Source of the DNA: an uncultured Candidatus Saccharibacteria bacterium | GTDB taxonomy: Bacteria > Patescibacteriota > UBA1384 > XYA2-FULL-43-10 > 1-14-0-10-43-13 | DNA: 64,000 nt | Direction of reading: 5' to 3' | Assembly (NCBI GenBank): GCA_964543385.1 | Contig: CAZIYE010000001.1 | Location: 551,123 to 615,122, forward strand | Shown: positions 465-37,161 of the stretch, in pieces | Numbering within the stretch: the first letter of the stretch is position 1 | Layout: every line of letters starts with the position of its first letter | Made by a program: the position numbers and the translations under genes | The notes under the pieces: generated by a model | Told to the model about the DNA's origin: nothing | Database searches by the model: none | What the model saw: only the letters and a program-made list of their open reading frames with translations

Positions 465-2582
465 GTGCGCAATATTGATGGTATAAGGAAAAAAAGCACA
501 AGATCTGCATGGAGAGAGGAAGAAAATCCTCATATTTTGCCGTTGGCAAAAGAAAATGCACCTCCTCGAGATAATCCAAAGATAATCATCCCTGTAGATA
601 TCGCAAAAGAGGATTATCAAAAACCGCCAGTCTCAGATAAGCCAATCTCCAATGGCAAAAAAGTTTGGAGAGCAGGTACCGGTTTGTCGCAAAAAAACTT
701 GATAATAGTTTTTCTGATTGCTTTGCTTTTATTTGGCGGTAAGACAGCCTTTTCCAGTGGCGAAAAAAAAGCCATTGCTTTGAAAAGGGAAATGGGTACG
801 AAAATTGCAATTATTGAGAACAAAATATCAAAAGTCCAAAAAGAAGCTGCTAGCGGCAATATCTCCAATGCGGTTAATGATCTGACAAATTTAAAAACAG
901 ACATTTTAGAATTAAAAATGTTTGCTCAATCATGGGGTCAGGATATAAAGTACTTTCAAATTTTAAATGCCAACACAGAACTAACTAAGAATGAAAAATT
1001 GCTGAGTACGGCCTATGAAGCCATTATGATTATTGATTCTCTTCCTGTTGATATGAAGAAACTAGAATCAACTTCATATCTTAGTCAAGGTGATTCTATC
1101 GCCGATATCAAAGCATTTAGACTGGAGCTATCTAGAGTAATAGATAAATTCGATAGTTTCGCAGTTCGGGCTAGGGATAATCTTCAAGGCATAAGCTATA
1201 CCAAAAGTTTGCTCCCAAAAATTGATCAATTAATTAATAAAATTAATTATGCTAAGAAGATAGCCAATAATGATCTTTTTTGGCTTTCCGGAGAAGATGG
1301 TACAGATAAAAATATTTTGGTCATTTTCCAAAATAATCGTGAATTACGTGGTGGCAGTGGTGGCTCATTTGGTTCGTTTGGGGTTGCTAGAATCAAGGGG
1401 GGCAAATTGCAAAAAATTGATTTTGGCACAAATATATACAAGCTCGACAAAGCTTTTATGGAAAAGGAGCAGATAGCTTCTCCATCTGAGCTCGAGGCTT
1501 TTGGTGGTATTTGGAGCTTAAAGCATTCTGGATTTGCTGTTGATGGCGCCGAAGCACTAGACAAAATCCGTTGGTTCTATGAAAAGGAAACCGGTGAGAA
1601 AGTTGACGGTGCTGTCACTATCGATACAGATACAATCGTATCTTTGCTTAGAGTAACTGGTCCAATCGACATGCCGGCATATCAGAAGACCTTAAATGCT
1701 GACAATTTTGTTGATGAGACAATGGCTGAAGTTCAAAATGACTATTTCGAGCGCACTGGAGGCAAAGTAGAAAATGAACCAAAGAAAATAATAGGAGATA
1801 TGACTCCAATCTTCATCACAAAACTTACTGCTGCTCTCAATGACAAGCAAAAATCGTTGGAGATAGTAAACTCATTGAAGCAATCATTCGCACAGAAACA
1901 CATATTGTTCAACTTTGCCAAGGAAGATTTACAGAAAGAAATGGTCGGTCTCAATCTAGCCGGAACAGTAAAGAATTCAATCGGGGACTATCTCTATATA
2001 AACAATTCAAACTTAGCCGGTGCTAAGACTAACCAAAATATGGTCGAAAATGTCATTCTGAATTCAGAAATATCTAAAGATGGTAAAATAACTAATAATC
2101 TCTCTCTAGAGAGAGTCCACACTGGAAAATCAAAAGCCCCTGATGGCTTGGACCGCAATTACGTTAGAATTTTGATCCCAAGTGACAGTAAGGTATTGTC
2201 ATTTAATGCCAAGAAGGGAAATTTCCAGCGTTATTATGATCGAGGATTTAGAAATAGTCAGCCTTTTTGGACAGATAAAGAGGCTGGAAAGAGTAGCATA
2301 AATTTCTGGATGTCGACATTGCCTCAAAATTCAACTCAGGCGGAGATGAGTTACGAGCCCAATTATCACCTAGACCTTACAAAAAGTTTTACCTATATTA
2401 TGAATTTTCAGAGACAGCCTGGTGCACCGGCTGATAATATTGAGTTAAATTTGAGCTACCCTGAGGGTTTCCAGCCTATAAATGTGGATAATCTGGGTCA
2501 GCTTGATAGCAAGATCAAACTTAAATTCAAAGTTGACACTGACAAAGAGATTAAAATAAAGTTTATTAAAACTACAAAGTAG
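465..2582 (+). CDS. DUF4012 domain membrane-anchored protein (cell-envelope glycopolymer associated)
   Basis: N-terminal TM helix (LIIVFLIALLLFGG). The motif FQNNRELRGGSGGSFGSFG matches the DUF4012 core (QNNAELRPTGGFIGSYG). The true start may be an internal Met. Confidence 0.6.
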   Translation: MRNIDGIRKKSTRSAWREEENPHILPLAKENAPPRDNPKIIIPVDIAKEDYQKPPVSDKPISNGKKVWRAGTGLSQKNLIIVFLIALLLFGGKTAFSSGEKKAIALKREMGTKIAIIENKISKVQKEAASGNISNAVNDLTNLKTDILELKMFAQSWGQDIKYFQILNANTELTKNEKLLSTAYEAIMIIDSLPVDMKKLESTSYLSQGDSIADIKAFRLELSRVIDKFDSFAVRARDNLQGISYTKSLLPKIDQLINKINYAKKIANNDLFWLSGEDGTDKNILVIFQNNRELRGGSGGSFGSFGVARIKGGKLQKIDFGTNIYKLDKAFMEKEQIASPSELEAFGGIWSLKHSGFAVDGAEALDKIRWFYEKETGEKVDGAVTIDTDTIVSLLRVTGPIDMPAYQKTLNADNFVDETMAEVQNDYFERTGGKVENEPKKIIGDMTPIFITKLTAALNDKQKSLEIVNSLKQSFAQKHILFNFAKEDLQKEMVGLNLAGTVKNSIGDYLYINNSNLAGAKTNQNMVENVILNSEISKDGKITNNLSLERVHTGKSKAPDGLDRNYVRILIPSDSKVLSFNAKKGNFQRYYDRGFRNSQPFWTDKEAGKSSINFWMSTLPQNSTQAEMSYEPNYHLDLTKSFTYIMNFQRQPGAPADNIELNLSYPEGFQPINVDNLGQLDSKIKLKFKVDTDKEIKIKFIKTTK

Positions 2583-2585
2583 ATT

Positions 2586-3890
2586 ATGTTAAAAAATATA
2601 GATCAAGCAATATTGTTGAAAAGTAGAGCATTACGTTGGATTTTGTTAATAATTATTGCCTATATTCCTTTTTACCGCTTTGTCCAAGCATTTCTTGAAA
2701 ATCATACTCAGCTTTCTAGCGGGACAGTTTTTTGGCTCTCGCATTGGTATGAGCCAGCAATTGTCATTTTAATATTCTTCTATTTTGCCATTTACCTATT
2801 TAAGAAAGAGCGGAAAATTGGGGCTGATCTTGTCTTGGCACTCATATTATTAAGTATGGGCACTCTTTCTATTTTTCTAGGAACTAAAGGTATCAGTAGG
2901 GGGATAGAGGGTTTTCGTTTTGTTGTGTTGCCCGTAGCGATTTTTGCCACTGCCTATCTGGCTGGTTTTGATAAGAATGCTCTCAAGAAATTTATTAATG
3001 TTTACATCGTAAGCGCTGTCATGATTGGCTTGTGGGCGTTGATTGAGCAAATCTTACCTTCAAATTATTGGTCACTTTGGGGTATCTTAAGCCCTAGTGC
3101 TTCGACATGGTTCGGTGCCCATACCGTTGATGGTATTAGACAAAGTGTATCTTTTATCGGCGGGCCCAATCAATTGGCTGCATATCTTCTGCCAGCATTT
3201 TTTATCTTGTTATCTAGTGGTAATGACATTACAAAGAAATTTCGTTGGGCACTGATCATCATTCTGGGAGCGGCTATAATTTTGACTTTTTCACGCTCTG
3301 CATTTATCGGGTTGATTATTGGTCTTATTTTATTCTTTATCTTAAATAAGAGTAATTTCGTTCGCTGGTTTGGATTGGCTTCATTTGTATTAGTCTTTGT
3401 TGCTATGTTCTTTATTTACCAATTTGGTGGTCCAACGGTTAAGAGTGTTTTTACTCATGGGGCTTCACAATCAGGTCATGCCTCGGCTCTGCAGGAATCG
3501 GTTTCAGAATTGAAATCAAGGACGTCTGATCTGCCAACTCTTATCTTCGGTTCTGGCTTGGGCAGTGCAGGGCCAGCCGCAATGAAATATGGCGATGGGA
3601 TTATCTCGGAATCATGGTATTTAGAAATTATTTTAGAGCTCGGCCTTTTTGGTATTTTTATATGGCTGCTTTATTTCTTTTTTATCGCCAAAAAGACAAT
3701 CAATTCGAATAGGGGATTATTTCTTGGTTTTATTTCCGTCGCAATCGCATCGTTATTTTTGCACACGCTCTCTGACAATCCGGCTGGAACATTTATTCTA
3801 TTTGCATTACTAGGCATAAACAACAGTTTATTATCAAAGGATAGCAAAAATATTCAAATAAAATTTGACCAAAGAACCGATAAAAGTTAG
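2586..3890 (+). CDS. O-antigen ligase-like (Wzy_C/WaaL family) polytopic membrane protein
   Basis: About 10 TM segments. The loop TFSRSAFIGLIIGLILFF is typical of the Wzy_C / O-antigen ligase family. Confidence 0.6.
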   Translation: MLKNIDQAILLKSRALRWILLIIIAYIPFYRFVQAFLENHTQLSSGTVFWLSHWYEPAIVILIFFYFAIYLFKKERKIGADLVLALILLSMGTLSIFLGTKGISRGIEGFRFVVLPVAIFATAYLAGFDKNALKKFINVYIVSAVMIGLWALIEQILPSNYWSLWGILSPSASTWFGAHTVDGIRQSVSFIGGPNQLAAYLLPAFFILLSSGNDITKKFRWALIIILGAAIILTFSRSAFIGLIIGLILFFILNKSNFVRWFGLASFVLVFVAMFFIYQFGGPTVKSVFTHGASQSGHASALQESVSELKSRTSDLPTLIFGSGLGSAGPAAMKYGDGIISESWYLEIILELGLFGIFIWLLYFFFIAKKTINSNRGLFLGFISVAIASLFLHTLSDNPAGTFILFALLGINNSLLSKDSKNIQIKFDQRTDKS

Positions 3891-3922
3891 ATTTAAAAAT
3901 AAATCATTATGGAAAGCCAAAA

Positions 3923-5128
3923 ATGAAACTTAATTCTCAAACAAGTATATTTTATCTTCTCTGCGTACTACTCATTTTTTTGCCATTAAGCTCATGGCTA
4001 GTCAGTTTGACCGGCTTGGCTTCTCTAACTTTAGTCAGGGATATCTTGATACTAATAATGGCTGCTTTGATAATTTTTAATTTTGACTGGAAAAAGATAA
4101 ATAAGACAATTTTCTGGTTAGCACTCGCCTTTATAATTTGGGGAGTCCTATCATTCTTTTGGAGGGAAGCCAGTGCAATGCAGTGGCTCAAAGGCTTCAG
4201 ATTCACATTTCTACCAATTATTTTCTTCCTTTCCATCGCAAATTCTAAGCTGAGTGAAAGTCAGAAGAGTACTATTTATAAGTTGATATTCGGCGGGGCA
4301 ATAGTGATATTAATTCTGGCAGCCCTTTCCCTATTTGGAGTCAATGTCCCTCTCATTACCTCTTTCTCAAGTCAGGGCGCCTTGGAAAGCGTTCATTATG
4401 TTGGCGATAGTAGTATCCCAAGACTGCAATCAGTTCTCGCTGGCCCAAATGCACTCGGGCTTTATTTAATGGCAATATTTGGCTTAGCAATTGGTCATTT
4501 AAAAAATAATAAACTTGCCAAATTTTTGCTTTTACCGATTATAATTATCCTTTTTCTAACATTTTCCAGAAGTGCTTTGATCGGTGCTTTTGTCTTGACT
4601 TTGGCAACAATATTCCTCTTTTTCAAAGAAAAGATTGGCGCTTGCAAATCGGCCATTATTATAGCCGTCATTTCAGTGGCGGTAGCTCTCGCCGGTTTCA
4701 TAGCTTATAAGAGTCCTGCATTGCAAAATTATTTTACTCATGACAATTCCTCTTCGCTCAGATATGAACAATATCAGAGGATTTGGGATATAAAAGCTGA
4801 AATCGGCTTGTTTGGAAGAGGATCAGGTACGGCCGGACCTTCCTCTCAATCTCGTCTTGATAACGGCGAAAATCATTGGACTGAAAATATCTACTTAGAT
4901 ATATTTGAGGAGCTTGGGTTTATCGGTTTATTTTTATATTTAATTTTAATTGGCGCCCTAATCTTTTCAACTTATAAGCGGGGGAACAAGAGCGCATTCT
5001 TAATTTTGACCGCTTTTGCCGTCACTGGTATTTTTATCAACTATTACACTGGCCAAGTCGGTATTTTCCTGATGTGGCTGATGGCAGCTTTAGTTTTGAA
5101 TAATGATAAAAAGGATATTAATGAATAA
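3923..5128 (+). CDS. O-antigen ligase-like (Wzy_C family) membrane protein, tandem paralog of the upstream gene
   Basis: Polytopic. The motif LTFSRSALIGAFVLTLATIFLFF matches Wzy_C. The architecture and length are the same as the preceding ORF. Confidence 0.6.
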   Translation: MKLNSQTSIFYLLCVLLIFLPLSSWLVSLTGLASLTLVRDILILIMAALIIFNFDWKKINKTIFWLALAFIIWGVLSFFWREASAMQWLKGFRFTFLPIIFFLSIANSKLSESQKSTIYKLIFGGAIVILILAALSLFGVNVPLITSFSSQGALESVHYVGDSSIPRLQSVLAGPNALGLYLMAIFGLAIGHLKNNKLAKFLLLPIIIILFLTFSRSALIGAFVLTLATIFLFFKEKIGACKSAIIIAVISVAVALAGFIAYKSPALQNYFTHDNSSSLRYEQYQRIWDIKAEIGLFGRGSGTAGPSSQSRLDNGENHWTENIYLDIFEELGFIGLFLYLILIGALIFSTYKRGNKSAFLILTAFAVTGIFINYYTGQVGIFLMWLMAALVLNNDKKDINE

Positions 5129-6287
5129 GGCAAAAAGAATCCTAGTTGATGGCAGGTTTGTCGGTGTTGGCGAATCTATCTCTCGATACACCTTAGAAAT
5201 GCTTAATGGTATTTTAAAATTGGATAAAGAAAATCAATATACCTTACTGATAAGACCCCAAGGTGAGCGTGCACTTGAAAGGTACCCAGATATTGTCAAT
5301 GCGCCAAACCTCAAAGTTGATATTTTAGAAATTCCTCATTACTCACTAGCTGAACAAACGAAGCTTTTAACCTACTTAAACAAAGAGAAATTTGATCTAG
5401 TTCACTTTACCCAATTCAATCATCCTATTTTTTACAAAGGTGATTATGTCACCACAATTCATGATCTTACTCTTGTCGGCCATTTACACTATTTCAATTT
5501 TGCTAAACAATTGGCCTATAATATGGTGATGAAATCGGCTGCCAGAGACTCAAAAAAGGTGATAGCAATCTCAAAGACTTCGATGGACGATGTAATAGAT
5601 TTTTTTGGCACACCAAAGAAGAAGTTTGAGATCATTTATCATGGTATTGACCACGCCAATTACAATTGGCAAGTCAAAAGTCAAAAGTCAAAAGTCAAAA
5701 GTTTTAAGGAAAAATATGGCATTCAACGCGACTATATTCTCTATACCGGTATGTGGAAGAAACACAAAAATTTGATCCGACTTTTCCAAGCCTTCGAAGA
5801 ATTCAAAAAAGAAACAAAAAACCCAATCCAGCTTGTCATGACGGGTAAAATTGATAAGAATGAGCCAGAAGTCATCGCCGAAATGGAAAGAGTCAATAAG
5901 TCTCTATCTTCTATATCAAAAAATCAATCTTCTATCCAAACAACTGGTTTTATTGACGAAGAAGAGCTGCCGATCGCTTATGCTGGGGCGTCTATGTACG
6001 TGATCCCTTCACTATCTGAAGGTTTTGGTTGGCCACCGCTCGAAGCAATGGCTTGCGGTACACCAGTAATTGCCTCAGATATCTCATGTATTCCTGAAAT
6101 ATTGGGTGATGCCCCATATTATTTTGATCCATATAAAATAGAAGAAATAACCAAAGCGATCTCAACTGTGTTGGGTGATGAAAAAGTTCAGAAAGAGCTA
6201 GCGGAAAAAGGGCTCAAACGGGTCAAAAAGTATAATTGGAACGAAACCGCTAAAAAGACCTTGGAAGTATATAAAAGTTTGATATAA
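5103..6287 (+). CDS. Glycosyltransferase family 4 (GT-B, RfaB-like)
   Basis: C-terminal motif [31 protein letters not shown] (GT4 E-x7-E signature). The real start is possibly ATG 5121, overlapping the upstream stop. Confidence 0.85.
5673..5700 (+). repeat. Heptanucleotide microsatellite (GTCAAAA)x4 inside the GT4 coding sequence
   Basis: Direct read: gtcaaaa gtcaaaa gtcaaaa gtcaaaa, encoding [10 protein letters not shown] in frame. Confidence 0.8.
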
Positions 6288-6359
6288 GTTTAATCATTTC
6301 CTTACTATAATTATTCTTGCGAAGCAATCTATTCTTTTGGCACTCTCTATATAACTAAA

Positions 6360-6391
6360 GTACGCCTGATCCCCGAAGGGAACAGGCGTAC
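6360..6391 (-). terminator. Rho-independent terminator for the GC-rich lipoprotein gene (weaker on the plus strand for the GT4 gene)
   Basis: GTACGCCTG-atccccgaagggaa-CAGGCGTAC perfect 9-bp stem. On the minus strand it is followed by TTTAGTTATATAG. Confidence 0.7.
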
Positions 6392-6411
6392 TTGATACTT
6401 GGCAGGGAAAG

Positions 6412-7176
6412 TCAGCGACTAAATCCCATGCCGGGGTCATCTGGTAAACCGGTGACCGTGTAGGTGGTGGTTTCTTCTATTGTTTCTCCAGTGTCAAGGT
6501 TTGTCACGATGACATGGAGGGTGCCCTCGCCATTAGCTGCGGCGTAGAAGCCATCAGCTGTTTTGGCCAGTGCATTTCTTTCTCCCGGGACATCCCACTC
6601 CGTTTTGATATGGTACCACGAGGTACCAAAACCAATGCGGAAGTAGTGTGCACCGGTGATACTAAAATGCCTGGTGCGATCTGGCATGACTTGGGCCATG
6701 TCTCCAACGGTTGTGTCAAAGACAGTTGTTAATGCAGTGCCAATAGGCGGTTTGGGATTGCAGATAAAGATATACTCACCTGCATTCCATTTGAAGGCGC
6801 CCTGTTGTGCAGTCGCAGTTGCAGTGTAGGCTTTGCCAGCCGCAACTATGGTGCTCAAGGTTGGCATAACTCCTTTTACATCATTGCTGATGCTCAGGCC
6901 CCCCCCAGGGGTGTTTTCGGTCTCGGTCACTTTGATCGTGACCTCTATTGGTAGCGGCTGGGGTGACCAGGTGGCGATTGCCTTCAAGGTCGTGCCAGCG
7001 GTGAGCTTGGTCGTACCCTCGGAGAGGGTGACCATGTTTCCAGCGCCATCCGTGAAACGGAGGCTGAGCCGGGGTTGCTCGTTGGAAGTCGAAGTGGCAC
7101 CAGTGCCACAGCCGGCCAGAATTCCGGCGCAAGCGATGATGAGCAACAGGCTCATGGCTGAGAGGATACGGCGCAT
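6412..7176 (-). CDS. Secreted lipoprotein of unknown function, compositionally foreign (GC-rich)
   Basis: Signal peptide plus lipobox (LLLIIACAGILAGC). The Thr/Gly/Ala-rich beta-type sequence is markedly GC-rich relative to its flanks. Strong SD AAGGAG 6 nt upstream of the ATG. Confidence 0.6.
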   Translation of the reverse strand: MRRILSAMSLLLIIACAGILAGCGTGATSTSNEQPRLSLRFTDGAGNMVTLSEGTTKLTAGTTLKAIATWSPQPLPIEVTIKVTETENTPGGGLSISNDVKGVMPTLSTIVAAGKAYTATATAQQGAFKWNAGEYIFICNPKPPIGTALTTVFDTTVGDMAQVMPDRTRHFSITGAHYFRIGFGTSWYHIKTEWDVPGERNALAKTADGFYAAANGEGTLHVIVTNLDTGETIEETTTYTVTGLPDDPGMGFSR

Positions 7177-7241
7177 CGATTTTCTCCTTATGCTTTCTTC
7201 AGCTGGTGGGATGATCCCATCGTCAGCTTAAAAACTTGCTA

Positions 7242-7270
7242 TATATTAACATAAATAACGTAAAATGTCA
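7242..7270 (-). promoter_or_regulatory. Sigma70-like promoter for the lipoprotein gene (TTGACA-17-TAATAT on the minus strand)
   Basis: Read on the reverse complement: cTTGACAttttacgttatttatgtTAATATatag. A GC-rich quasi-palindrome (cagctggtgggatgatcccatcgtcagct, 7205-7228) lies in the 5'UTR. Confidence 0.4.
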
Positions 7271-7273
7271 AGA

Positions 7274-7400: not shown

Positions 7401-9503
7401 ATGTACACAATTGCGATGATCCTGGCGCTTGGTGCCGCCATTGTTTCTATTATTTACGGCCTTATTTTGGTCATGAGCGTTAATAAGATGCCTGCTGGCA
7501 ATAAGAAAATGGTTGACATTGCGAAAGCAATCCAAGAAGGCGCGATGGCGTTTCTAAATCGCCAATATTCCGCTGTTGGCATGGTTGCCGCAGTTCTCTT
7601 TGTAATATTGCTTTATGCACTTGGCTGGAAAATTGCCGTTGGCTTCTTGGTCGGCGCAATCTTTTCTGCTTTGGCTGGCTATATCGGTATGAATGTTTCC
7701 GTTCGCGGAAATGTCAGAACTGCTGAAGCTTCCAGAAAGGGTCTGCCATTTGGCATGGATGTTGCTTTCAAGTCAGGAACTGTGACTGGAATGCTTGTTG
7801 TAGGTTTAGCACTTCTCGCGGTTGCTGGGTATTATGCACTCACCAAAGACATCAACGCCCTGATCGGTCTTGGTTTCGGCGGATCTCTTATCTCAATTTT
7901 TGCTAGACTTGGCGGCGGAATCTTTACAAAGGCTGCAGACGTCGGAGCTGATCTAGTTGGCAAGGTAGAAGCAGGAATTCCTGAAGATGATCCAAGAAAT
8001 CCGGCTGTTATCGCTGATAATGTTGGTGATAATGTTGGTGACTGTGCTGGCATGGCCGCTGACCTATTTGAGACCTACTCAGTAACTGCTATTGCTGCAA
8101 TGCTTTTAGGACACCTTTTCTTCCCAGATTTCGAGAATGCAGTTTTATTTCCACTCATTCTTGGTGCTGCTTCAATCGTAACTTCAATTATCGGTAGTTG
8201 GTTTGTAAAGCTTGGAAAAAATTCCAAAAACATCATGGGCACTCTATATAGAGGTTTGATTGTTGCTGGTGTTTTAGCTGCTATTGCTTTCTACTTCATC
8301 ACAAATTGGATGATGGCAGACAACGGACAATATACAACTCTTGAAATTTATCTGACAGCCTTGATTGGCTTGGGTGTCACCGCTGCATTATGTATAATTA
8401 CGGAATATTTTACTTCGACAAAATTTCAACCAGTCCAATCGATCGCACAGAGTTCTCAGACAGGTCACGGTACAAATATTATCACTGGTTTGGCTGTCTC
8501 GATGAGATCAACAGCAATGCCTGTAATAGTTATTGGTGCTGCTATCTTGGGCGCTTACTCTCTTGCCGGACTTTTCGGTATCGCTATCGCCGCTATGGCA
8601 ATGCTTTCAATGGCAGGTATCATCGTAGCTATTGATGCTTTCGGTCCAGTTGTTGATAATGCTGGCGGAATAGCAGAGATGAGTGAAATGCCATCTGATG
8701 TTCGTGTTCACACTGATGCACTTGACGCAGTAGGAAACACTACAAAAGCTGTTACCAAGGGTTATGCTATCGGTTCAGCTGCTCTTGCCGCTATGGTTTT
8801 ATTTGCTGACTACACTGAGAAACTTAAAGCAGCTGGTGGACATTATGCTTTTGATCTTACTGATCCAAAAGTTTTAGTAGGTTTATTTATTGGTGGCTTG
8901 CTTCCATATTATTTTGGTTCTCTGGCTATGGAGGCTGTCGGTAAGGCTGCTGGTGCTGTTGTCGAAGAAGTACGAAGACAATTCCGCGAGATGAAAGGCA
9001 TCATGGAAGGCAAAGTAAAGCCTGATTATGCTAAAGCTGTTGATATTGTAACTAAAGCAGCTATCAAAGAAATGATCCTTCCTGCTGCTATTACAGTTGC
9101 TGCTCCAATCCTAGTTGGCTTCTTGCTCGGTCCTGTTGCCCTCGGTGGCTTTCTGATTGGTACGATTATCACCGGACTTTTTGTTGCAATCTCGATGACT
9201 TCTGGCGGCGGTGCTTGGGATAATGCCAAGAAATACATCGAAGAAGGTAATTTCGGCGGCAAGGGCTCGATCGCTCATCAAGCTGCTGTGACAGGTGATA
9301 CTGTTGGTGATCCATATAAAGACACTGCTGGTCCTGCTATCAATCCGATCATCAAGGTTGTGAATATTATTGCTCTTCTGATTGCTGGTACATTGATCAA
9401 GGTTGAGCTCACAAATACAACCAAGATTGTAGTTGTTGCAGTTATCATTCTCGGTATTACTGCTTGGATGCTCCTCGGTAACAAGAAGAAATCTGTTAAA
9501 TAG
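7401..9503 (+). CDS. hppA: Membrane-bound H+-translocating pyrophosphatase, K+-independent type
   Basis: Motifs [18 protein letters not shown] and [26 protein letters not shown]. The GNTTKA motif has Lys at the Ala/Lys position, which indicates K+ independence. Confidence 0.9.
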
Positions 9504-9513
9504 TTGAGACAAT

Positions 9514-9533
9514 GGCTCCGCGAATGCGGGGCC
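9514..9533 (+). terminator. GC-rich hairpin after hppA (GGCTCCGC-gaat-GCGGGGCC)
   Basis: 8-bp stem including one G-U pair, followed by a U-containing tail. Weak-to-moderate terminator. Confidence 0.35.
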
Positions 9534-9563
9534 ATCTCTTACATATTTAAAGATAGTGGAAAT

Positions 9564-9836
9564 ATGACTAAGAAGATAATATTGCCTGTTGCAGCCTTGT
9601 TGCTCTCGGTAATTATCTTTTTGTCATATCAATATTTCAGAGATTATCAGACAAAAGAACAGGAAGAACAGTACGAAAAACAGACTTGTGCCAAAGAGGG
9701 AGAAGAAACTTTTGAACTGGTCGCTGACGCTAATCCTAGAAATTGTTGCGCAGGGCTAAAACCTTTTCGTGATTCAGAAACCCGTCCAGATGGTAGCTCG
9801 TGGATTTCAGGGACAGAGATATGTGTTAAGAATTAA
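9564..9836 (+). CDS. Small secreted/membrane-anchored Cys-containing protein (hypothetical)
   Basis: Internal Met start MTKKIILPVAALLLSVIIFL (signal/anchor) with GGAAAT upstream. The C-terminal part carries 4 Cys. Confidence 0.35.
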   Translation: MTKKIILPVAALLLSVIIFLSYQYFRDYQTKEQEEQYEKQTCAKEGEETFELVADANPRNCCAGLKPFRDSETRPDGSSWISGTEICVKN

Positions 9837-9849
9837 TTTATAAAGCTAA

Positions 9850-10104
9850 TTGCCAATGAAAACAGAACGAAGCAACAAAATCAGGTTCATCTTCGGTAGC
9901 GCTATTATTCTAATGGCAGTTCTTATTCTTTATAATGCTCTAAATAATGGTCCTAGCGATCACGCCTGGGCAAACTTTATGATTTTGACATTACTGGGAG
10001 TCAGTTGGTTCTTGCCTCCGGTCAAAGAAATGTCCTTGTGGCTGTTTCTAAGAATATTAGTTATCATGGTGATGGCTTTTACTGCCGGTTATATCTGGAG
10101 ATAG
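9850..10104 (+). CDS. Small two-TM membrane protein (hypothetical)
   Basis: Two hydrophobic helices. The stop overlaps the start of the next ORF (TAGATG). Confidence 0.3.
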   Translation: MPMKTERSNKIRFIFGSAIILMAVLILYNALNNGPSDHAWANFMILTLLGVSWFLPPVKEMSLWLFLRILVIMVMAFTAGYIWR

Positions 10105-10344
10105 ATGAAAAATATTGAAAAAGGTACCAAAAGAACCAAATTAGAGCTAGACCGAATAGAGGGAGAAAAATCAGTTTTATTTACTGATGACGGGGATGAA
10201 ATTGTCCTATCGAACAAAATACTTCCTAAAGACATTGCCGAAGGTGATTGCCTTATTCTGACAGTAGCGACCGACGAAGCCGAGAAGTTGGCAAATGACC
10301 AAAAAGCCAAGGATATTCTAAACGCGATAATGAATCCAAGATAA
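10105..10344 (+). CDS. DUF3006-like small protein
   Basis: LDRIEGEKSVLFTDDGDEIVLSNKILPKDIAEGDCLIL fits the DUF3006 pattern (IDRFEGDYAVLE..DG..IDVP...LPEGAKEGDVL). Confidence 0.45.
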   Translation: MKNIEKGTKRTKLELDRIEGEKSVLFTDDGDEIVLSNKILPKDIAEGDCLILTVATDEAEKLANDQKAKDILNAIMNPR

Positions 10345-10442
10345 GAAGTCATTACACTTTCTGGAAAAGCTTAAAATATTTATGGTTTTTCTGTATGATA
10401 GAGGCGAGACATGATTTAGAGCTGATTGTATATATGGATTAA

Positions 10443-12398
10443 TTGATGATAAAGAAAGATAAAGAAACCGCGAGAGAGGAAGATAAAGGGGAAAAGACAA
10501 AAGTAAAAATTCCTCTGAAATATTTGATTTTTGGCGGAGCAGGCCTCATCGTCCTGTCTTTGCTTTCTTTTGCTGCATATTCTATCGCTTTTCAAAATAA
10601 AAATTACATAAATCAATATGTAGGTACTATTAATCTAGGTGGCAGAGATAAGAATGATACTAAAAATGTTTTAAAAGAGGCAGCTGAGAAATATCAGAAC
10701 TCCCAGATCGTTCTCAAGAACACAAACTTAAACAAAGTCTATAATATTGATCCGACAGAAATCGGCTTAACTTTTGATGTAGATAGATCAGCAGATGAGA
10801 TTTGGTCCTTCGGTAGAGGAGGAAGTGCCTTAGGAAATATGCTGGATCAGATAAAAAGCATTTTCGTTCGCAGAAATTTTGATTTGTTTATATCATTGAA
10901 TGAAAAAGGCCTAAATCAAAAGATAAAAACAATTGCCGAAGAACTAGATAAACCTGAAAAAGATTATTCCCTTGTTTACACTGGTAACGGTTTCGAAATC
11001 ACAACAGAACGTGTTGCCGGTGAAAGGATAAACCAAGCTAAAATAGTATTGGATCTGAAAAAGAGCTTTTCTAGCCTATCTACTGCTGAAAATATTTTCA
11101 CAATCGATGTATATGAGCCAAAAGTAACGCTCGAGAGTGCTAATAAGACGCTGTCTGAGGCTAACGGGATTATTTCTCCGGGAGAATTAATAATAAAAGG
11201 GGAAGGCCAGGAATTCAAAGCAGATAAAGACACTATTGCTGGTTTTATAAAATCAAGCCACAATGGTAGCGATTTGGAGCTTGATTTTAATGAAGATAGG
11301 ATAAAAAAGTTTCTCGACGTTGTTGCCAAGGCTGTCAATGTTGATGCTGGCAATGCAAAACTTAGAATGGAAAATGGCAAAGTGGTTGTTTTTAATCAAT
11401 CAAAAGTTGGCAAGGCGCTCAAAATTGATCAGACAATTAATGAAATAAAAAGTGCATTACTGGCAAGAATTACTGGAGTCTATAACCAAGTCACATTAGT
11501 TGTAGAAAGTAAAAGCCCCCAAATTACCGAGACGGAGGTAAGTTCATTGGGGATCAACGAATTAATCGGAACTGCCAGTACTTCCTTCAAGGGATCTCCG
11601 CCAAATCGTGTTCATAATATAACCATAGGGGCAAATGGCTTGAACGGAGTTTTGCTCAAACCAGGTGAAGAATTCTCCACTCTCAGCCATCTTGGCGTAA
11701 TTGATGCCAGCGGAGGATATCTAGAAGAGCTTGTGATCAAAGAGAACAGGACCATACCAGAATTTGGTGGTGGGTTATGTCAGGTCTCCTCAACTATTTT
11801 TCGTACAGCTATATATGCGGGGATGAAAATAACAGAGCGTAGCGCTCACAAATATCGAGTTGGCTATTTTGAGCCACCTATTGGCATGGATGCCACAATC
11901 TATGATCCGGCGCCAGATTTTAAATTTGTTAATAACTATAAGAGTCACGTCCTGATCCAATCAAGGATAGAAGGAACAAAACTTACATTTGATATTTATG
12001 GCACTAAGGATGGCAGAAAAATAGATGTTTCTAATCCTATAGCATTCGATTACGTTAATCCTGGCGAACCGATAATTACTGAGACGGATACTCTACCTGC
12101 CGGTGAAAGAAAAAAAATTGAATCAGCACATCAGGGGGCAACTGCCAGATTTGATTATAAAGTGACGAGCGCTTCTGGGGACGTATTGCAACAAAAGACA
12201 TTTGTCTCCAAGTATGTCCCATGGCCAGAGAAATGGCTAGTAGGTAAGGCTGCTGCTCCTGCTGTTGTCCCTGATCCAATTCCGGCAACGCCCGAGACTC
12301 CGGCTCCATTGCCAACCACAACATGTACCGATGGAACTCAAAACGGTGATGAAACAGGTGTTGATTGTGGCGGAAGCTGCTCAGTCTGTGCGCAATAA
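10443..12398 (+). CDS. VanW-family protein with N-terminal TM anchor and Cys-rich C-terminal tail
   Basis: VanW core PEFGGGLCQVSSTIFRTAIYAGMKITERSAHKYRVGYF. Pro/Thr linker, then the tail CTDGTQNGDETGVDCGGSCSVCAQ. Confidence 0.75.
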   Translation: MMIKKDKETAREEDKGEKTKVKIPLKYLIFGGAGLIVLSLLSFAAYSIAFQNKNYINQYVGTINLGGRDKNDTKNVLKEAAEKYQNSQIVLKNTNLNKVYNIDPTEIGLTFDVDRSADEIWSFGRGGSALGNMLDQIKSIFVRRNFDLFISLNEKGLNQKIKTIAEELDKPEKDYSLVYTGNGFEITTERVAGERINQAKIVLDLKKSFSSLSTAENIFTIDVYEPKVTLESANKTLSEANGIISPGELIIKGEGQEFKADKDTIAGFIKSSHNGSDLELDFNEDRIKKFLDVVAKAVNVDAGNAKLRMENGKVVVFNQSKVGKALKIDQTINEIKSALLARITGVYNQVTLVVESKSPQITETEVSSLGINELIGTASTSFKGSPPNRVHNITIGANGLNGVLLKPGEEFSTLSHLGVIDASGGYLEELVIKENRTIPEFGGGLCQVSSTIFRTAIYAGMKITERSAHKYRVGYFEPPIGMDATIYDPAPDFKFVNNYKSHVLIQSRIEGTKLTFDIYGTKDGRKIDVSNPIAFDYVNPGEPIITETDTLPAGERKKIESAHQGATARFDYKVTSASGDVLQQKTFVSKYVPWPEKWLVGKAAAPAVVPDPIPATPETPAPLPTTTCTDGTQNGDETGVDCGGSCSVCAQ

Positions 12399-16882: not shown

Positions 16883-16908
16883 GAGGATACTATATCGTAT
16901 TTAATGCC

Positions 16909-16937
16909 ATTTTACAGAATTGCCAGAAATAATGCAA
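16909..16937 (-). promoter_or_regulatory. Putative pyrG promoter (TTGCAT-17-TAAAAT on the minus strand)
   Basis: Read on the reverse complement: cTTGCATtatttctggcaattctgTAAAATggc. Confidence 0.4.
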
Positions 16938-16946
16938 GACCTAAGA

Positions 16947-16975
16947 TTGACACAACAACACTTATCTTATATAGT
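16947..16975 (+). promoter_or_regulatory. Near-consensus sigma70 promoter TTGACA-17-TATAGT driving the GC-rich islet 1 small ORF
   Basis: gaTTGACAcaacaacacttatcttaTATAGTgtc. Divergent and back-to-back with the pyrG promoter. Confidence 0.5.
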
Positions 16976-17016
16976 GTCAACACAACGAACCCCCGATCCA
17001 TTCTGAAGGAGACACC

Positions 17017-17175
17017 ATGGGAACAAAGACCGACGCTGCTGATCACAGCCAACAAACCCTACCGCCGGATGTTGCGCCGGTGCACGACTCTGTACTTGCC
17101 GATGGCACTGTCATTAAGGGGAATGAAGAATCCCCTCAGTCAGTGTCGCCCGACAAGAAGCCAATTAGCGGCTAG
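17017..17175 (+). CDS. Small ORF (52 aa), hydrophilic and acidic, in GC-rich islet 1 (hypothetical; not in the ORF track because it is under 60 aa)
   Basis: Strong SD ctGAAGGAGacaccATG. Product MGTKTDAADHSQQTLPPDVAPVHDSVLADGTVIKGNEESPQSVSPDKKPISG. Followed by a 9-bp GC hairpin. The codon usage and GC are atypical for this genome. Confidence 0.3.
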   Translation: MGTKTDAADHSQQTLPPDVAPVHDSVLADGTVIKGNEESPQSVSPDKKPISG

Positions 17176-17199
17176 TCTGCTTGGCACGTTCTTTCTCTT

Positions 17200-17227
17200 G
17201 GGTCCCCGTCGCTTGCGCCGGGGACCC
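17200..17227 (+). terminator. GC-rich hairpin after the islet 1 ORF (GGGTCCCCG-tcgcttgcgc-CGGGGACCC)
   Basis: Perfect 9-bp stem. The T-run (tctatttttt) starts about 17 nt downstream, so this is a non-canonical but plausible terminator. Confidence 0.4.
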
Positions 17228-17250
17228 TTAGCTTATCCCTGTCTATTTTT

Positions 17251-17259
17251 TGGTATAAT
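17251..17259 (+). promoter_or_regulatory. Extended -10 element TGGTATAAT immediately upstream of the NTase gene, implying a leaderless or near-leaderless mRNA
   Basis: ttttttgGTATAATcatcgcataATG. The ATG at 17269 is only 10 nt from the end of the -10 element. Confidence 0.4.
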
Positions 17260-17268
17260 CATCGCATA

Positions 17269-17946
17269 ATGAATCAATACAAAGATAAGTATTTAAAAAG
17301 AACAGTTAGATTCTCAGGGATTCTCCAATGTGTGCCATTTCTGCGTGCAATCATTCTAAATGGCTCTCTAGCAGGAGGTAATATTAAAGAAAGCTCTGAT
17401 ATAGATCTACTTATTATTGCAAGATCAGGGCGGATTTATACCACCAGATTCTTTGTTAATCTACTTGGTAATCTGCTGGGAGAAAAAAGATCGAAGAATG
17501 AAGAGAAGTCTCATGCTGGGAAGTTCTGCTTTAATTATTTTTTAACTGATGGTTATCTTAAAATCCCGACAGGTAGGGGAGAAAAGATGGACAAATATTG
17601 TGCGATGAATTATTCAAGAAGTGTCCTCCTTTGGGGTGATGATAAATTATTTGATAAGTTTCTTGCAATAAATAGTGATTTGTTTGCAAAATTTGGTTGT
17701 TTTTCGTCATTAAATGATTCAAAAGAGCTAGAATATTATTTCCCAGCCAGAAGTATTACTTTTCTCTTGTTTATTAGAAAAATGCAAGAGATTGTTTTTG
17801 GCGGAATGTTTGGTAATTGGATTGAAAGAAGGCTTAAACATTTACAAATAAAAATGATAGAAAGTGACCCGAGAACTAGCAAATTTCCGAGTTTGATCGT
17901 CTATAATGATCAAGAAGCTCGCTTTCATCCACCAAAAAATCTTTAA
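17269..17946 (+). CDS. Pol-beta-superfamily nucleotidyltransferase-fold protein of unknown substrate
   Basis: NTase signature GSLAGGNIKESSDIDLLII (hG[GS]-x9-13-[DE]h[DE]h). 225 aa, no TM. Confidence 0.55.
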   Translation: MNQYKDKYLKRTVRFSGILQCVPFLRAIILNGSLAGGNIKESSDIDLLIIARSGRIYTTRFFVNLLGNLLGEKRSKNEEKSHAGKFCFNYFLTDGYLKIPTGRGEKMDKYCAMNYSRSVLLWGDDKLFDKFLAINSDLFAKFGCFSSLNDSKELEYYFPARSITFLLFIRKMQEIVFGGMFGNWIERRLKHLQIKMIESDPRTSKFPSLIVYNDQEARFHPPKNL

Positions 17947-22237: not shown

Positions 22238-22924
22238 TTATAACTCATCTTTCAAGATATCGTCGAGCTCATCGTTCAATTTTGAAAGTCTCTCAACTTC
22301 ATCGTTGACTTTTTCTTTCTTAGCAGCTTTTGGAGCAGAAGCCTTTTTTTCTGGCTTAGCCTCTACTACTTCCTCTGTTTTCTCTTTCTTAGCAGCTTTT
22401 GGAGCAGAAGCCTTTTTTTCTGGCTTAGCCTCTACTACTTCTTCTTCTTCTACCTGAATCTCTTCTTTTGCAGCTTCTTCAACGACTTCTGCTTTTTCTT
22501 CTTGGCGCTTTGCCATTAGGCTTTTGCTATCTTTGGTTTCTCCTATAATAGCTTCAAATGATTTTTCGCCACCGACAACTTCTTCGATCTCATTTGCTTG
22601 AGCGATCTCCTCAGCAGAAAGGCTTATTTTTTCATTGCTGAGCTCTTTGATAATCATTAACTGGCGAAGAACACCATCAATGTGTCGAAGGTCTTTCTCA
22701 AATTCGATTGCCTTGTTTGCTGGCAAATCAAAATAAAGGGTAACGTAAGTAGCAAAATCCTGTTTTTTAATAGGATATGCCAACTTTCTTCGTCCCCAAA
22801 TGTCTTCCTTGGTAGTCTTCCCGCCAAGTTCTTTAACGAAACCGGAAACTTTTCCGGTCACTTTGTTCAAATCACTCTCTGGTACCTCATCAGAAACGAG
22901 GTACGTAAGCTCGTACTTTCTCAA
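22238..22924 (-). CDS. rpsF: 30S ribosomal protein S6 with a long charged C-terminal extension containing a 23-aa tandem repeat
   Basis: S6 core MRKYELTYLVSDE...ATYVTLYFDLP... followed by about 125 aa rich in E/K/A, with EEVVEAKPEKKASAPKAAKKEK duplicated. Confidence 0.85.
   Translation of the reverse strand: MRKYELTYLVSDEVPESDLNKVTGKVSGFVKELGGKTTKEDIWGRRKLAYPIKKQDFATYVTLYFDLPANKAIEFEKDLRHIDGVLRQLMIIKELSNEKISLSAEEIAQANEIEEVVGGEKSFEAIIGETKDSKSLMAKRQEEKAEVVEEAAKEEIQVEEEEVVEAKPEKKASAPKAAKKEKTEEVVEAKPEKKASAPKAAKKEKVNDEVERLSKLNDELDDILKDEL
22319..22440 (-). repeat. 69-nt tandem duplication (2 copies) within the rpsF 3' extension
   Basis: cttagcagcttttggagcagaagcctttttttctggcttagcctctactactt is repeated with a 69-nt period. 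Confidence 0.8.
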
Positions 22925-36612: not shown

Positions 36613-37161
36613 ATGGGAAACGATAGTTTTTTAGCTAAAATTTTATATGGCAGTGTCGCAATTTTTGATCTGGCAAAATGGCTAATTTTGGTTTTGATAA
36701 TTTTAAGTTTGATCAATGCTTTTTTTGTGGGTGTGTTTGTCGTTGACGGCGAATCCATGCATCCGAGTTTTAAAGATAAGGAGCTTGTTTTTTGGAATAA
36801 AGGCATATATAAAGACAGTAAACCTGAGAGAGGAGACATAGTTGTCGTCCAATACCCAGGCGATCCTAAACATAAGGTTTATGTTAAGAGAGTTGTTGGT
36901 CTGCCTGGCGAACGCGTAGAGATAAAGAGTGGCAAAATCTACATAAACAACAAGCTCTATCGGGAGAAATACTTAAATCAAAGCTTGTTAACCGAACCAA
37001 GTGGTGTGTGGATATCAAAAAGTAATGAGTATTTTGTAATGGGTGATAACAGGCCAAACTCAAACGATTCAAGATTTTTCGGATCTATAGAAAAACGTTT
37101 TGTTTTAGGAAAAGCTCTCGGTGTGATATTCCCGAGGTTCCGTGTCGTAGACGATATCTAA
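36613..37161 (+). CDS. lepB: Signal peptidase I
   Basis: Catalytic Ser box VDGESMHPSF, Lys box VKRVVGLPGE, and C-box GDNRPNSNDSRFFG. Confidence 0.9.
   Translation: MGNDSFLAKILYGSVAIFDLAKWLILVLIILSLINAFFVGVFVVDGESMHPSFKDKELVFWNKGIYKDSKPERGDIVVVQYPGDPKHKVYVKRVVGLPGERVEIKSGKIYINNKLYREKYLNQSLLTEPSGVWISKSNEYFVMGDNRPNSNDSRFFGSIEKRFVLGKALGVIFPRFRVVDDI

Follow-up and report, generated by a model that had tools for sequence, protein, structure and literature searches.

A GC-rich lipoprotein gene beside hppA in a Patescibacteria genome: a probable allele of a lineage-restricted variable surface family

The stretch of DNA analysed here (64 kb, referred to throughout as the window) has a GC content of 38.6%, and between hppA and a Wzy_C/GT4 glycan locus it carries a single gene, here called X, with a GC content of 54.4%. 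The locus therefore raises the question of whether so unusual a composition marks a horizontally acquired gene, as an earlier note on this DNA had proposed, or is a property of the gene and its relatives. The reading favoured here, with a probability of roughly 0.6, is that X is an allele belonging to a small family of variable surface lipoproteins, restricted to one lineage and housed in a variable slot whose place between hppA and the glycan locus is fixed. The features of the locus are as follows.

6351..6391, minus strand: intrinsic terminator, GTACGCCTGTTCCC-TTCG-GGGATCAGGCGTAC followed by TTTAGTTAT; the hairpin spans 6391-6360
6412-7176, minus strand: coding sequence of X, a complete lipoprotein CDS of 254 aa
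6415..6735, minus strand: C-terminal Ig-like beta-sandwich domain (about residues 148-250) and a short conserved D-x-G-x-G tail
6757..7107, minus strand: Thr/Ser-rich linker (residues 24-34) and N-terminal beta-rich domain (about residues 35-140), the most variable and most GC-rich part
6899..6906, minus strand: G8 homopolymer in the coding strand (CCT GGG GGG GGC), giving an extra Gly codon that is missing from the orthologues
7108..7176, minus strand: predicted signal peptide and lipobox, residues 1-23, MRRILSAMSLLLIIACAGILAG followed by C; Cys23 codon at 7110-7108
7184..7189, minus strand: Shine-Dalgarno sequence AAGGAG, 7 nt upstream of the ATG at 7176, conserved in the orthologues
7196..7236, minus strand: 5'-UTR stem-loop, beginning 1-2 nt from the predicted transcription start
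7229-7201, minus strand: core of an imperfect quasi-palindrome, AAGCTGACGATGGGATCATCCCACCAGCT, unique in the window (0 expected by chance)
7243..7271, minus strand: sigma-70-type promoter, with -35 TTGACA (7271-7266), a 17-nt spacer ending in TG (extended -10) and -10 TAATAT (7248-7243)

Composition and expression signals

The description of X as strikingly GC-rich in an AT-rich context was confirmed by calculating GC content for every 765-bp sliding interval of the 64 kb (mean 0.386, SD 0.029), the maximum of which (0.545) fell exactly at X. Its foreign-looking composition extends to all three codon positions (GC1/2/3 of 0.514/0.533/0.584) and to the amino-acid make-up, in which GARP residues are increased and FYMINK residues decreased. 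GC3 lies 9.1 SD above that of the 48 other long ORFs (mean 0.342, SD 0.026, maximum 0.387), codon usage is displaced mainly toward C-ending codons, and the highest GC3 within the gene (0.70-0.75) is found in the first 240 nt, which encode the N-terminal part. The GC skew of the coding strand is between -0.09 and 0.00 in five family members. The G8 tract is the sole G or C run of at least 7 nt in the 64 kb (chance of approximately 0.035 in shuffles of X) and is a possible candidate for phase variation. Identical or orthologous X loci were found in independent NCBI, Logan, ENA and JGI assemblies, which rules out an assembly artefact as the source of the gene. The antisense ORFs across X had been dismissed as spurious, and were rejected as genuine genes here also, because shuffling the same sequence yields stop-free stretches comparable in length to the 115 aa observed (mean 94, 95th percentile 139).

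The promoter that had been claimed for X (TTGACA-17-TAATAT) was recovered by a promoter scan at 7271..7243, with 10/12 positions matched and a TG ahead of the -10 element. The surrounding promoter cassette, ATTGACTTTTTTA..TGTGTTAATATATA.ACA.GTTT, occurs once in the 64 kb and has homologous counterparts in all three orthologues and in two of the L089 paralogues. The strong Shine-Dalgarno sequence is readily read from the sequence, and the terminator hairpin folds with a predicted energy of -23.7 kcal/mol (z = -4.9) and is invariant at all three orthologous loci amid diverging surroundings. It is a terminator as had been described, although near-perfect rather than perfect, as its stem contains one U.U mismatch. 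The convergent GT4 gene, which ends at 6287, may use this terminator too. The list produced by a simple scan did not contain it. X is thus equipped with strong expression signals of its own, as had been stated, and is probably strongly expressed, to judge from these signals.

The quasi-palindrome in the 5' UTR had been put forward as a candidate operator. The palindrome itself is genuine, unique in the window and imperfect, and the notion that it is a DNA site for a dimeric repressor draws on its dyad symmetry, on its location just downstream of the -10 element (the classic operator position) and on the invariance of its outer arms (AGCTG/CAGCT) across the three orthologues. The inner half-sites, however, vary symmetrically between orthologues (TGGGAT.ATCCCA becomes TGGGG...CCCCA) while the spacing at the centre shifts from 1 to 3 nt, and the paralogues with the same promoter have hairpins of unrelated sequence at the equivalent position, again with compensatory A-U to G-C changes. 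There is also no regulator gene adjoining X. An operator is therefore unlikely, and the symmetric half-site changes make a 5'-terminal RNA hairpin the more likely identity of the palindrome. The stem-loop folds at -14.5 kcal/mol (z = -2.2). L001 and L003 retain it, and its inner stem shows compensatory replacement of A-U by G-C; in a family this small (three orthologues and three distant members), the covariation amounts to one or two changes. No Rfam family matched the 5' UTR. A sub-threshold Rfam match to the fluoride riboswitch (18.7 bits) within the coding sequence was regarded as noise.

Signals of this kind suggest high expression, and the bias of X is mainly toward C-ending codons, so codon bias caused by translational selection in a very highly expressed gene was considered. 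Eight genes of the window (those for GroEL, GroES, EF-P, S6, S15, SSB, RecA and PNPase) have third-position C/(C+T) values of 0.28-0.45 and GC3 of 0.28-0.39, whereas C/(C+T) is 0.64 in X, and GC1 and GC2 of X are shifted too. Translational selection is extremely improbable, and was rejected on this comparison with highly expressed genes.

The predicted lipoprotein and its domains

The N-terminus of X consists of MRR, the hydrophobic segment ILSAMSLLLIIACAGI and LAG immediately before C23, and conforms to the lipobox pattern of bacterial lipoproteins exported by Sec and processed by SPase II ([LVI][ASTVI][GAS]C). The prediction of a secreted lipoprotein with an LAGC lipobox (MRR-hydrophobic-ILAGC, Cys23) was thereby upheld. 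All three orthologues have CAGILAGC unchanged, and the related genes of the slot have L(S/T)GC lipoboxes. Among the scanned ORFs of the window there was no LGT or Peptidase_A8 match that would represent Lgt or LspA, and the only signal peptidase was a signal peptidase I (36613-37161).

The earlier note had seen no recognisable domain in X, and this holds at the sequence level. Searches of Pfam, NCBIfam and PHROGs returned only sub-threshold noise (DUF5979 at E = 0.03 and an "invert_tail" match on the signal peptide), no Pfam Big_* family matched any of the six family members even at E values up to 1, a PDB profile search gave nothing below E = 0.18, and PDB sequence searches with both domains gave no match. 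An AF2 model of the full-length protein built from three sequences was all-beta but of low confidence (pLDDT 41), and was left out of the fold search; there was no confident model of the N-terminal domain. The predicted structure of the C-terminal domain, which is the defining domain of the six-member family, has an Ig-like beta-sandwich fold. The two domains have no detectable similarity to each other (hhalign probability 0.2%), and internal duplication was rejected. The surface or interaction role that had been suggested is compatible with the predicted Ig-like domain. The dN/dS of X is 0.11-0.23, which indicates that a functional protein is being maintained.

Family, slot and probable allele exchange

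The family of X is very small: six protein clusters were found in approximately 15 billion proteins, namely the three orthologues and three distant members. Word-indexed searches with a profile of the C-terminal domain and with P0004 yielded no further members, IMG/VR contained no relatives, and JGI metagenomes contained only the known contig. The family members with known flanks (L001, L003, L096, L089 and L088) share the slot between hppA and GT4. The slot holds one gene in the window and four GC-rich secreted-protein genes in L089; the latter are set apart by AT-rich spacers, in which the same promoter cassette is found. All genes of the slot are co-oriented, each with its own promoter. Its occupancy spans lineages whose VanW proteins are only 53% identical, and ordinary genes of the X-bearing lineages share 53-66% amino-acid identity. 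A search of genome contigs with HppA found only relatives of at most 70% identity, in a differing gene context, and in more distant Patescibacteria hppA has other surroundings, without an X-like gene. The HppA search thus shows the slot to be lineage-specific and the organism to be Patescibacteria-like.

All family members are GC-rich (48-58% against backgrounds of 38-43%), the orthologues having 53.6%, 48.4% and 54-58% against backgrounds of 39-43%. GC-richness is thus a stable trait of the whole cassette family rather than a sign that DNA was transferred into this genome recently, and the claim of a horizontally acquired, inserted gene was not borne out, because the same slot is occupied by a GC-rich gene in every sampled relative. 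Homologues of similar GC across the lineage, which the earlier note had named as evidence against its claim, are largely what the orthologues provide. Had a GC-rich donor recently supplied the gene, which then gained native expression signals once inserted between hppA and the glycan locus, this would account for a composition, codon usage and amino-acid make-up that would suit a genome of 55-60% GC; and a separate, non-secreted gene of elevated GC inserted elsewhere in L089 indicates that GC-rich DNA does reach this lineage. Against this, the slot is occupied across deep divergence; promoter, UTR and terminator are common to orthologues and paralogues; X is flanked by no tRNA, direct repeat or mobility gene (no tRNA was found in the whole 64 kb); and no donor, nor any homologue beyond the slot, was found in approximately 15 billion proteins, IMG/VR or JGI contigs. 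Recent insertion is consequently very unlikely.

The comparison of L001 with L003 revealed how the alleles differ. Identity is 93-100% across hppA, the spacer, the promoter, the UTR and the signal peptide, falls to 50-70% over the mature coding part of X, and returns to 97% at the terminator and 89-95% in GT4. The two X proteins match at every residue as far as 23 and are far less alike beyond it, and for this one pair of genomes dS is about 2 in X as opposed to 0.18 in hppA. As the breaks in identity coincide with the lipobox Cys and with the terminator, it is the cassette encoding the mature protein that has been swapped. Divergence between these alleles is greater in the N-terminal domain (dN 0.40) than in the C-terminal domain (0.15). 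Between the window and L001, conversely, the N-terminal domain is 87-92% identical at the nucleotide level, above the flanking hppA, and its dS (0.70) is below that of hppA (1.16).

Smaller exchanges are also evident. Over 3160 nt, 20 differences separate L096 from L001, and 16 of them lie inside one 95-bp patch of X (p = 2e-21). The differences in this patch, the sole polarisable one, comprise 9 AT-to-GC and 4 GC-to-AT changes. The hppA genes of L004 and L003 show 10 third-position differences within 49 bp, close to a contig end. As hppA also has imported patches, what sets X apart is how deeply its alleles have diverged, not patchy recombination as such. Deeply diverged "orthologues" in close genomes could alternatively result if different tandem paralogues had been lost from each genome. 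Neither the window nor the sequenced flanks of relatives contain partial copies of X, and the window contains no repeats of any part of it. A DGR target was rejected, since there is no template repeat in the window and the allele differences spread beyond any single short region. No recombinase families were found among the called genes of L001, L003, L005 and L089. The earlier note had overlooked that X is a recombining, mosaic and fast-diverging cassette.

Two accounts of why X stays GC-rich were weighed. One is that an ancestor of the lineage acquired the gene long ago, and that descent, duplication, loss and recombination followed, with the GC content either unameliorated or re-imported from an unsampled GC-rich reservoir. 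The GC-richness of all members at every codon position, the orphan-like family confined to one slot, and allele GC3 values ranging from 0.50 to 0.75, as partial amelioration predicts, are consistent with this. Every allele, however, retains a GC3 0.10-0.30 above background despite saturated dS (about 2), and at such divergence neutral amelioration should have removed most of the excess; nor was a reservoir found in IMG/VR, JGI contigs or protein searches. An ancient foreign ancestry of the whole cassette family is accordingly rather unlikely.

The other account is that GC-richness is actively maintained because it serves variation or arises from it, through a recombination-promoting composition or GC-biased repair, in a vls-like manner and with other alleles or silent copies as donors. 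GC stays high in spite of saturated divergence, the GC-rich segment coincides with the swapped one, the putative 95-bp conversion patch raises GC, and the vls cassettes of Borrelia (49% GC in a 28.6% GC genome, reported to be under selection for this) offer a selected precedent (PMC11499132). On the other hand, the coding-strand skew of X is far from the 0.52 of vls, the 64 kb holds no partial copies as donors, only one patch could be polarised, and hppA has a normal GC3 (0.35) in spite of its imported patches, which weakens simple biased gene conversion as the sole cause. Active maintenance is a tentative possibility only.

Under the favoured reading of X as an allele of a variable surface family, the gene is a self-contained expression unit comprised of a near-consensus extended -10 promoter, a 5' hairpin, a Shine-Dalgarno sequence, a lipobox signal peptide, a GC-rich body and a terminator. 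The 5'-terminal hairpin may stabilise the mRNA, by analogy with S-layer genes, which have strong promoters and a 5'-UTR stem-loop (PMC10221546). The protein would be exported, lipid-modified at Cys23 and held by its N-terminus on the cell surface, where it would expose the beta-rich domain, which varies, and the Ig-like domain, which is conserved. Homologous recombination between deeply diverged alleles would exchange the mature cassette, either in full or patch by patch, within two conserved flanks, the terminator on one side and the promoter, UTR and signal peptide on the other. Such exchange would generate surface variation at the level of the population, presumably under pressure from phages, host cells or partner cells.

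A more far-reaching proposal, speculative and decidedly unlikely as a whole, is that the slot is the expression site of a dedicated Patescibacteria (CPR) surface-variation system, a functional analogue of vls in which GC-richness drives, or results from, frequent segmental gene conversion. Its donors would be silent copies elsewhere in the 671-kb genome or a population pool of alleles acquired by transformation; the episymbiont would alter the surface protein seen by phages or host cells, and the G8 tract would add on/off switching.

Patescibacteria (CPR) are thought to live attached to other cells. To our knowledge, hardly any surface protein of these bacteria has been characterised, and little is known of how their surfaces recognise partners and evade phages. 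The X locus provides a small, concrete surface candidate that can be tracked in metagenomes: an orphan Ig-like lipoprotein gene with the hallmarks of strong expression, beside surface-glycan genes, in one to four copies and with cassette exchange between lineages. The persistence of its GC3 excess is at odds with the prediction of horizontal transfer followed by amelioration.

Comparison with known systems

X resembles a classical genomic island in its atypical GC, codon usage and amino-acid composition, but differs in being conserved in its slot, with no mobility genes, tRNA, flanking repeats or donor. The Big_2-type Ig domains of S-layer proteins and adhesins (EA1/Sap of B. anthracis, SbsB/SbsC of Geobacillus, and intimin/invasin) are 11-18% identical to it, without a Pfam Big_2 match. 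Unlike S-layer proteins, which are large, self-assemble and have SLH or cell-wall-binding domains, X is a predicted lipid-anchored protein of 23 kDa.

The variable lipoproteins of mycoplasmas (Vsp of M. bovis, Vpma of M. agalactiae and Vlp of M. hyorhinis) are alike in the clustering of several small lipoprotein genes at a single locus, as in L089, and in combining a conserved 5' UTR and signal peptide with its lipobox with divergent mature parts, as described for Vpma and Vsp (PMC2268961). X differs from Vsp and Vpma in having no adjacent tyrosine recombinase, no promoter-swapping inversion and no internal tandem repeats, and has no homology to them. Mycoplasma variable lipoprotein genes are not known to be GC-rich.

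The best-known parallel is the vls system of Borrelia burgdorferi sensu lato. VlsE is alpha-helical and X is predicted to be all-beta, with no relationship of sequence or fold. The vls sequences have a skew of about 0.5 with G runs and X has no skew and a single G8 run; vls has an array of promoterless silent cassettes and the 64 kb around X has none. The variation of X was observed between strains and lineages and not within a clone, and the bacterium that carries it, an environmental Patescibacteria-type organism, faces no adaptive immune system. In both systems, nevertheless, the variable part of a lipoprotein has a GC content of approximately 50% in a much more AT-rich genome, and the GC anomaly is conserved even where the sequence differs, between strains in vlsE (PMC11499132) and in all family members here. 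The 95-bp patch of X may correspond to the patch-wise replacement of internal segments by diverged sequence in vlsE. In vls the GC anomaly is believed to have a function. If X is comparable in this respect, genes of "foreign" composition in small AT-rich genomes are not automatically the result of horizontal transfer, and GC-rich islets could serve as a search key for the variable surface genes of uncultivated bacteria.

Composition and setting of the lipoprotein gene

The predicted lipoprotein gene (6412-7176, minus strand, 254 aa) contains 54.4% GC, compared with 38.6% for the window, and across all 765-bp windows (mean 0.386, SD 0.029) the highest value, 0.545, fell exactly on this gene. 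GC was raised at every codon position (GC1 0.514, GC2 0.533, GC3 0.584), and GC3 peaked at 0.67-0.77 over the first 270 nt. The GC3 of the 48 other long ORFs in the window averaged 0.342 +/- 0.026 and did not exceed 0.387, and the gene therefore lies 9 SD out. The shift involved all codon families and the amino-acid make-up of the product (Thr 15.4% vs 5.2%, Gly and Ala raised, Lys and Ile lowered). The earlier note was correct in describing a GC-rich gene in AT-richer surroundings, and also in regarding the antisense ORFs as spurious, as they were no longer than those in shuffles of the same sequence. Translational selection as the source of this composition was excluded by third-position C/(C+T), which was 0.28-0.45 in highly expressed genes (GroEL, GroES, EF-P, S6, S15, SSB, RecA and PNPase) and 0.64 in the lipoprotein gene.

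The coding strand of the gene also carries a run of eight G (6899-6906; C8 on the plus strand), which makes a Gly codon absent from the orthologues. It is the sole G or C homopolymer of at least 7 nt within the 64 kb (chance approximately 0.035, from shuffles of the gene) and could be a slipped-strand on/off switch. A second compositional outlier, a 121-aa ORF (16904-17269, plus strand; GC 0.49, GC3 0.525), sits between the CTP synthase and nucleotidyltransferase genes; searches for Pfam domains, Rfam families (even with E up to 1), tRNAs and tmRNAs gave no match, and it may be either an RNA gene that escapes recognition or a further gene of foreign-looking composition. Elsewhere in the window, the ribosomal protein S6 gene (22238-22924, minus strand) encodes 228 aa, of which only residues 3-91 form the S6 domain, and within the long extension on the C-terminal side there is a 69-nt tandem repeat (22292-22429; two copies, 87% identical). 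A 1875-aa ORF (24659-30286, plus strand) encodes a giant protein of no assigned function, whose sole match was a weak one to a DUF294 nucleotidyltransferase.

The family of the lipoprotein is very small. Among 5.8 billion clustered proteins it matched only itself and the clusters P0002 (68% identity) and P0003 (52%). When 1.84 billion representatives were searched exhaustively with a profile, only P0004, P0005 and P0006 were added, which share with it roughly the C-terminal 105 residues, and further profile and single-sequence searches, IMG/VR and JGI contigs yielded no additional members. In every locus with flanking DNA (the related contigs L001, L003, L005, L096, L089 and L088) the family gene lies between a divergent hppA (H+-pyrophosphatase) and convergent genes for a GT4 glycosyltransferase and then Wzy_C. 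In more distant Patescibacteria, hppA has nusA-like and trigger-factor-like genes beside it and no such neighbour; the best HppA matches include Patescibacteria MAGs (63-70% identity) and Proteobacteria MAGs of similar identity. The Patescibacteria matches and the 671-kb size of the contig make a Patescibacteria (CPR) bacterium the probable source.

The deeper relative L089 (hppA, GT4 and VanW proteins 87%, 66% and 53% identical to those of the window) has four GC-rich genes in this slot (8550-11757; GC3 0.65-0.75), all in the same orientation and all for secreted proteins or lipoproteins: two lipoproteins that are paralogues of each other (164 aa and 176 aa; E = 2e-7), a third lipoprotein of 137 aa, and the family member P0006 (351 aa), whose signal peptide is of the ordinary kind. 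A promoter like that of the lipoprotein gene, together with a 5' hairpin, precedes at least two of these genes, a GC-rich terminator hairpin follows three of them, and the spacers between them are AT-rich (24-37% GC), two containing the promoter cassette. The family members have GC contents of 53.6%, 48.4%, 53.7-58.5%, 55.9% and 58.4% (GC3 0.50-0.75), and their neighbouring genes 33-47%, mostly 36-42%. The slot flanks contain no tRNA, repeat or mobility gene; in the whole 64 kb, ARAGORN found no tRNA or tmRNA gene, and Rfam searches gave nothing at or above a family's gathering score. The insertion by horizontal transfer proposed in the earlier note is improbable as a recent event, because the slot is conserved in relatives, all members are GC-rich and mobility flanks are absent. 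L089 also has, between its VanW and DUF3006 genes, a 273-aa non-secreted gene (4563-5384, plus strand; GC 0.49, GC3 0.54) with no counterpart in the window, showing that GC-rich DNA entered the lineage elsewhere too.

Expression signals and mosaic divergence

The signals around the gene were as follows.

Signals of the lipoprotein gene (all minus strand)
7271-7243: promoter TTGACA-17-TAATAT, with TG ahead of the -10 element
7201-7229: quasi-palindrome, unique in the window
7 nt ahead of the ATG: Shine-Dalgarno sequence AAGGAG
N-terminus: canonical lipobox; the product begins MRRILSAMSLLLIIACAGILAG|C
20 nt past the stop: terminator hairpin of 14 bp with one mismatch, then TTTAGTTAT; -23.7 kcal/mol, z = -4.9

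The consensus-like promoter and strong Shine-Dalgarno sequence were confirmed. The hairpin terminator and the 5'UTR palindrome are likewise present, the former strong and the latter unique, although 'perfect', the earlier note's word for the terminator, would be an exaggeration for both. The promoter block (ATTGACTTTTTTA..TGTGTTAATATATA.ACA.GTTT) is homologous across the three orthologues and two L089 paralogues, and each of these genes has a stem-loop directly downstream of it, at the predicted mRNA 5' end. The orthologues all have the same outer stem (AGCUG/CAGCU); in the inner stem, GGGA-UCA-UCCC is replaced by GGGG-ACA-CCCC through A-U to G-C compensation, with L001 as a single-step intermediate. 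The L089 paralogues have a longer hairpin of different sequence in the same place (-24 to -25 kcal/mol, z down to -3.8), also with A-U to G-C compensation between copies. As pairing rather than sequence is conserved, albeit in a small sample, an RNA (or DNA) hairpin is more likely than the sequence-specific operator suggested previously. The 5'UTR matched no Rfam family. In S-layer genes a 5' stem-loop stabilises the transcript and keeps the Shine-Dalgarno sequence exposed (PMC10221546); by analogy, the stem-loop described here would do the same.

The lipoprotein gene is the fastest-diverging gene of its neighbourhood, and its divergence is a mosaic rather than uniformly fast. Between L001 and L003, identity is 93-100% across hppA, the spacer, promoter, 5'UTR and 23-residue signal peptide, falls suddenly to 50-70% in the part encoding the mature protein, and is 97% in the terminator and 89-95% in GT4. 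Over this comparison dS is 0.18 for hppA and approximately 2 (saturated) for the lipoprotein gene, and nonsynonymous acceleration in place is therefore not the cause; the pattern points to exchange of old alleles, or of paralogues. All three orthologous loci have an identical terminator amid diverged surroundings; this terminator and the 5' block are the homology arms of the cassette. The same mosaic could also have arisen if genes of a tandem array were lost differentially, by recombination between the repeated blocks of promoter and terminator.

Between the window and L001, the N-terminal domain is 87-92% identical (dS 0.70), closer than hppA at 80-85% (dS 1.16). Of 3160 positions compared between L096 and L001, 20 differ, and 16 of these lie within a 95-bp patch inside the lipoprotein gene (p = 2e-21), with nine changes towards higher GC and four towards lower. 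With dN/dS of 0.11-0.23, the protein is under purifying selection. Patches also occur in hppA, near contig ends: L004 differs from L003 by 10 third-position changes in 49 bp (L003 2422-2470), and the near-identical L096 and L097 by clustered third-position differences (L096 2524-2605). Such clusters reflect either imported, diverged DNA or joins made between strains in the assembly graph, and either way are not confined to the lipoprotein gene. The L004 patch suggests that these populations import DNA patch-wise as a general habit; the lipoprotein gene stands apart in the depth of the exchanged alleles. Logan contigs of three sequencing runs, 100% identical to the window, all end at 5673/5674 and two also at 7938. 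The breaks could mark branch points of the assembly graph on either side of the locus, and hint at strain heterogeneity there.

The patches in hppA weaken simple GC-biased conversion as the cause of the GC-richness, as that gene receives them yet has normal GC3. Maintenance of the GC content is a tentative explanation, with a precedent in the Borrelia vls cassettes (49% GC in a genome of 28.6% GC), which are "under strong selective pressure" (PMC11499132); however, the gene lacks vls-type GC skew and a search of the 64 kb turned up no silent copies. Slightly less probable is an ancient foreign origin, whether or not re-import came later. A single ancient transfer followed by neutral amelioration fits poorly with GC3 still 0.10-0.30 above background in every lineage and dS-saturated alleles, and repeated import needs a reservoir, none of which was visible in approximately 15 billion proteins.

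The encoded protein

The product bears the lipobox signature expected of a secreted lipoprotein, as the earlier note had proposed, and is probably lipidated and surface-exposed; Lgt and LspA were not found in the scanned part of the window. No Pfam, NCBIfam or PHROGs family matched it, in agreement with the earlier statement that it has no recognisable domain at the sequence level. The full-length model was all-beta and unreliable (pLDDT 41). A model of the C-terminal domain from the six sequences was confident (pLDDT 86.9, pTM 0.75) and comprised a nine-strand sandwich.

Structure comparison of the C-terminal domain
B. anthracis EA1 S-layer protein: 8.2
SbsB: 7.3
Phage T5 tail-tube Ig domain: 6.9
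Intimin: 6.7
Big_2-CBM56: 6.5
SbsC and Sap: 6.2-6.4

Foldseek support for this likeness was weak, the domain is not a Big_2 member by sequence, and similarity between the N- and C-terminal domains was undetectable. From N to C terminus, the protein would consist of a lipid anchor at Cys23, a Thr/Ser-rich linker, a variable beta-rich domain and a conserved Ig-like domain; P0004 and P0006 have longer, unrelated regions in place of the N-terminal domain. All six members end in a short D-x-G-x-G tail (e.g., PDDPGMGFSR, DDGGKG, IDIGRG; 6415-6440 in the window), disordered in the model and followed by no transmembrane segment, which could be a recognition or sorting motif. The adjacent glycan locus (465-6287) encodes GT4 together with a DUF4012 protein and two Wzy_C proteins. 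O-oligosaccharyltransferases are among the members of the Wzy_C family, and as pure speculation the lipoprotein, with its Thr/Ser-rich linker, might be a glycosylation substrate.

Comparison with known surface-protein systems

The earlier interpretation holds for a surface lipoprotein of foreign-looking composition; it does not hold for the insertion, at least not as a recent one, and the palindrome is more probably an RNA hairpin than an operator. On the basis of six protein clusters, the gene is a recombining cassette of a CPR-type bacterium that encodes an orphan, Ig-like, predicted surface lipoprotein and has a persistent GC anomaly. The locus is a tractable lead into CPR surface biology and a warning against calling horizontal transfer from composition alone.

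Tests of the gene as a genomic island and as a DGR target were negative. A published Gracilibacteria genome contains a hypervariable surface gene (PMC6851277), but that case differs in being a nucleotide-level repeat phenomenon. With vlsE the gene has in common a GC anomaly and, apparently, patch-wise replacement, and differs in skew and fold; no silent array was found in the 64 kb. Its fold and expression style are those of S-layer proteins and adhesins, although it is no sequence member of those families. The locus behaves like a variable surface lipoprotein locus. The Mycoplasma Vsp/Vpma loci are multigene clusters with conserved 5'UTRs and signal peptides and divergent mature parts (PMC2268961); unlike them, the locus has no recombinase, inversion or repeats, but it shares the conserved 5'UTR and signal peptide, the divergent mature parts and, in L089, the clustering.
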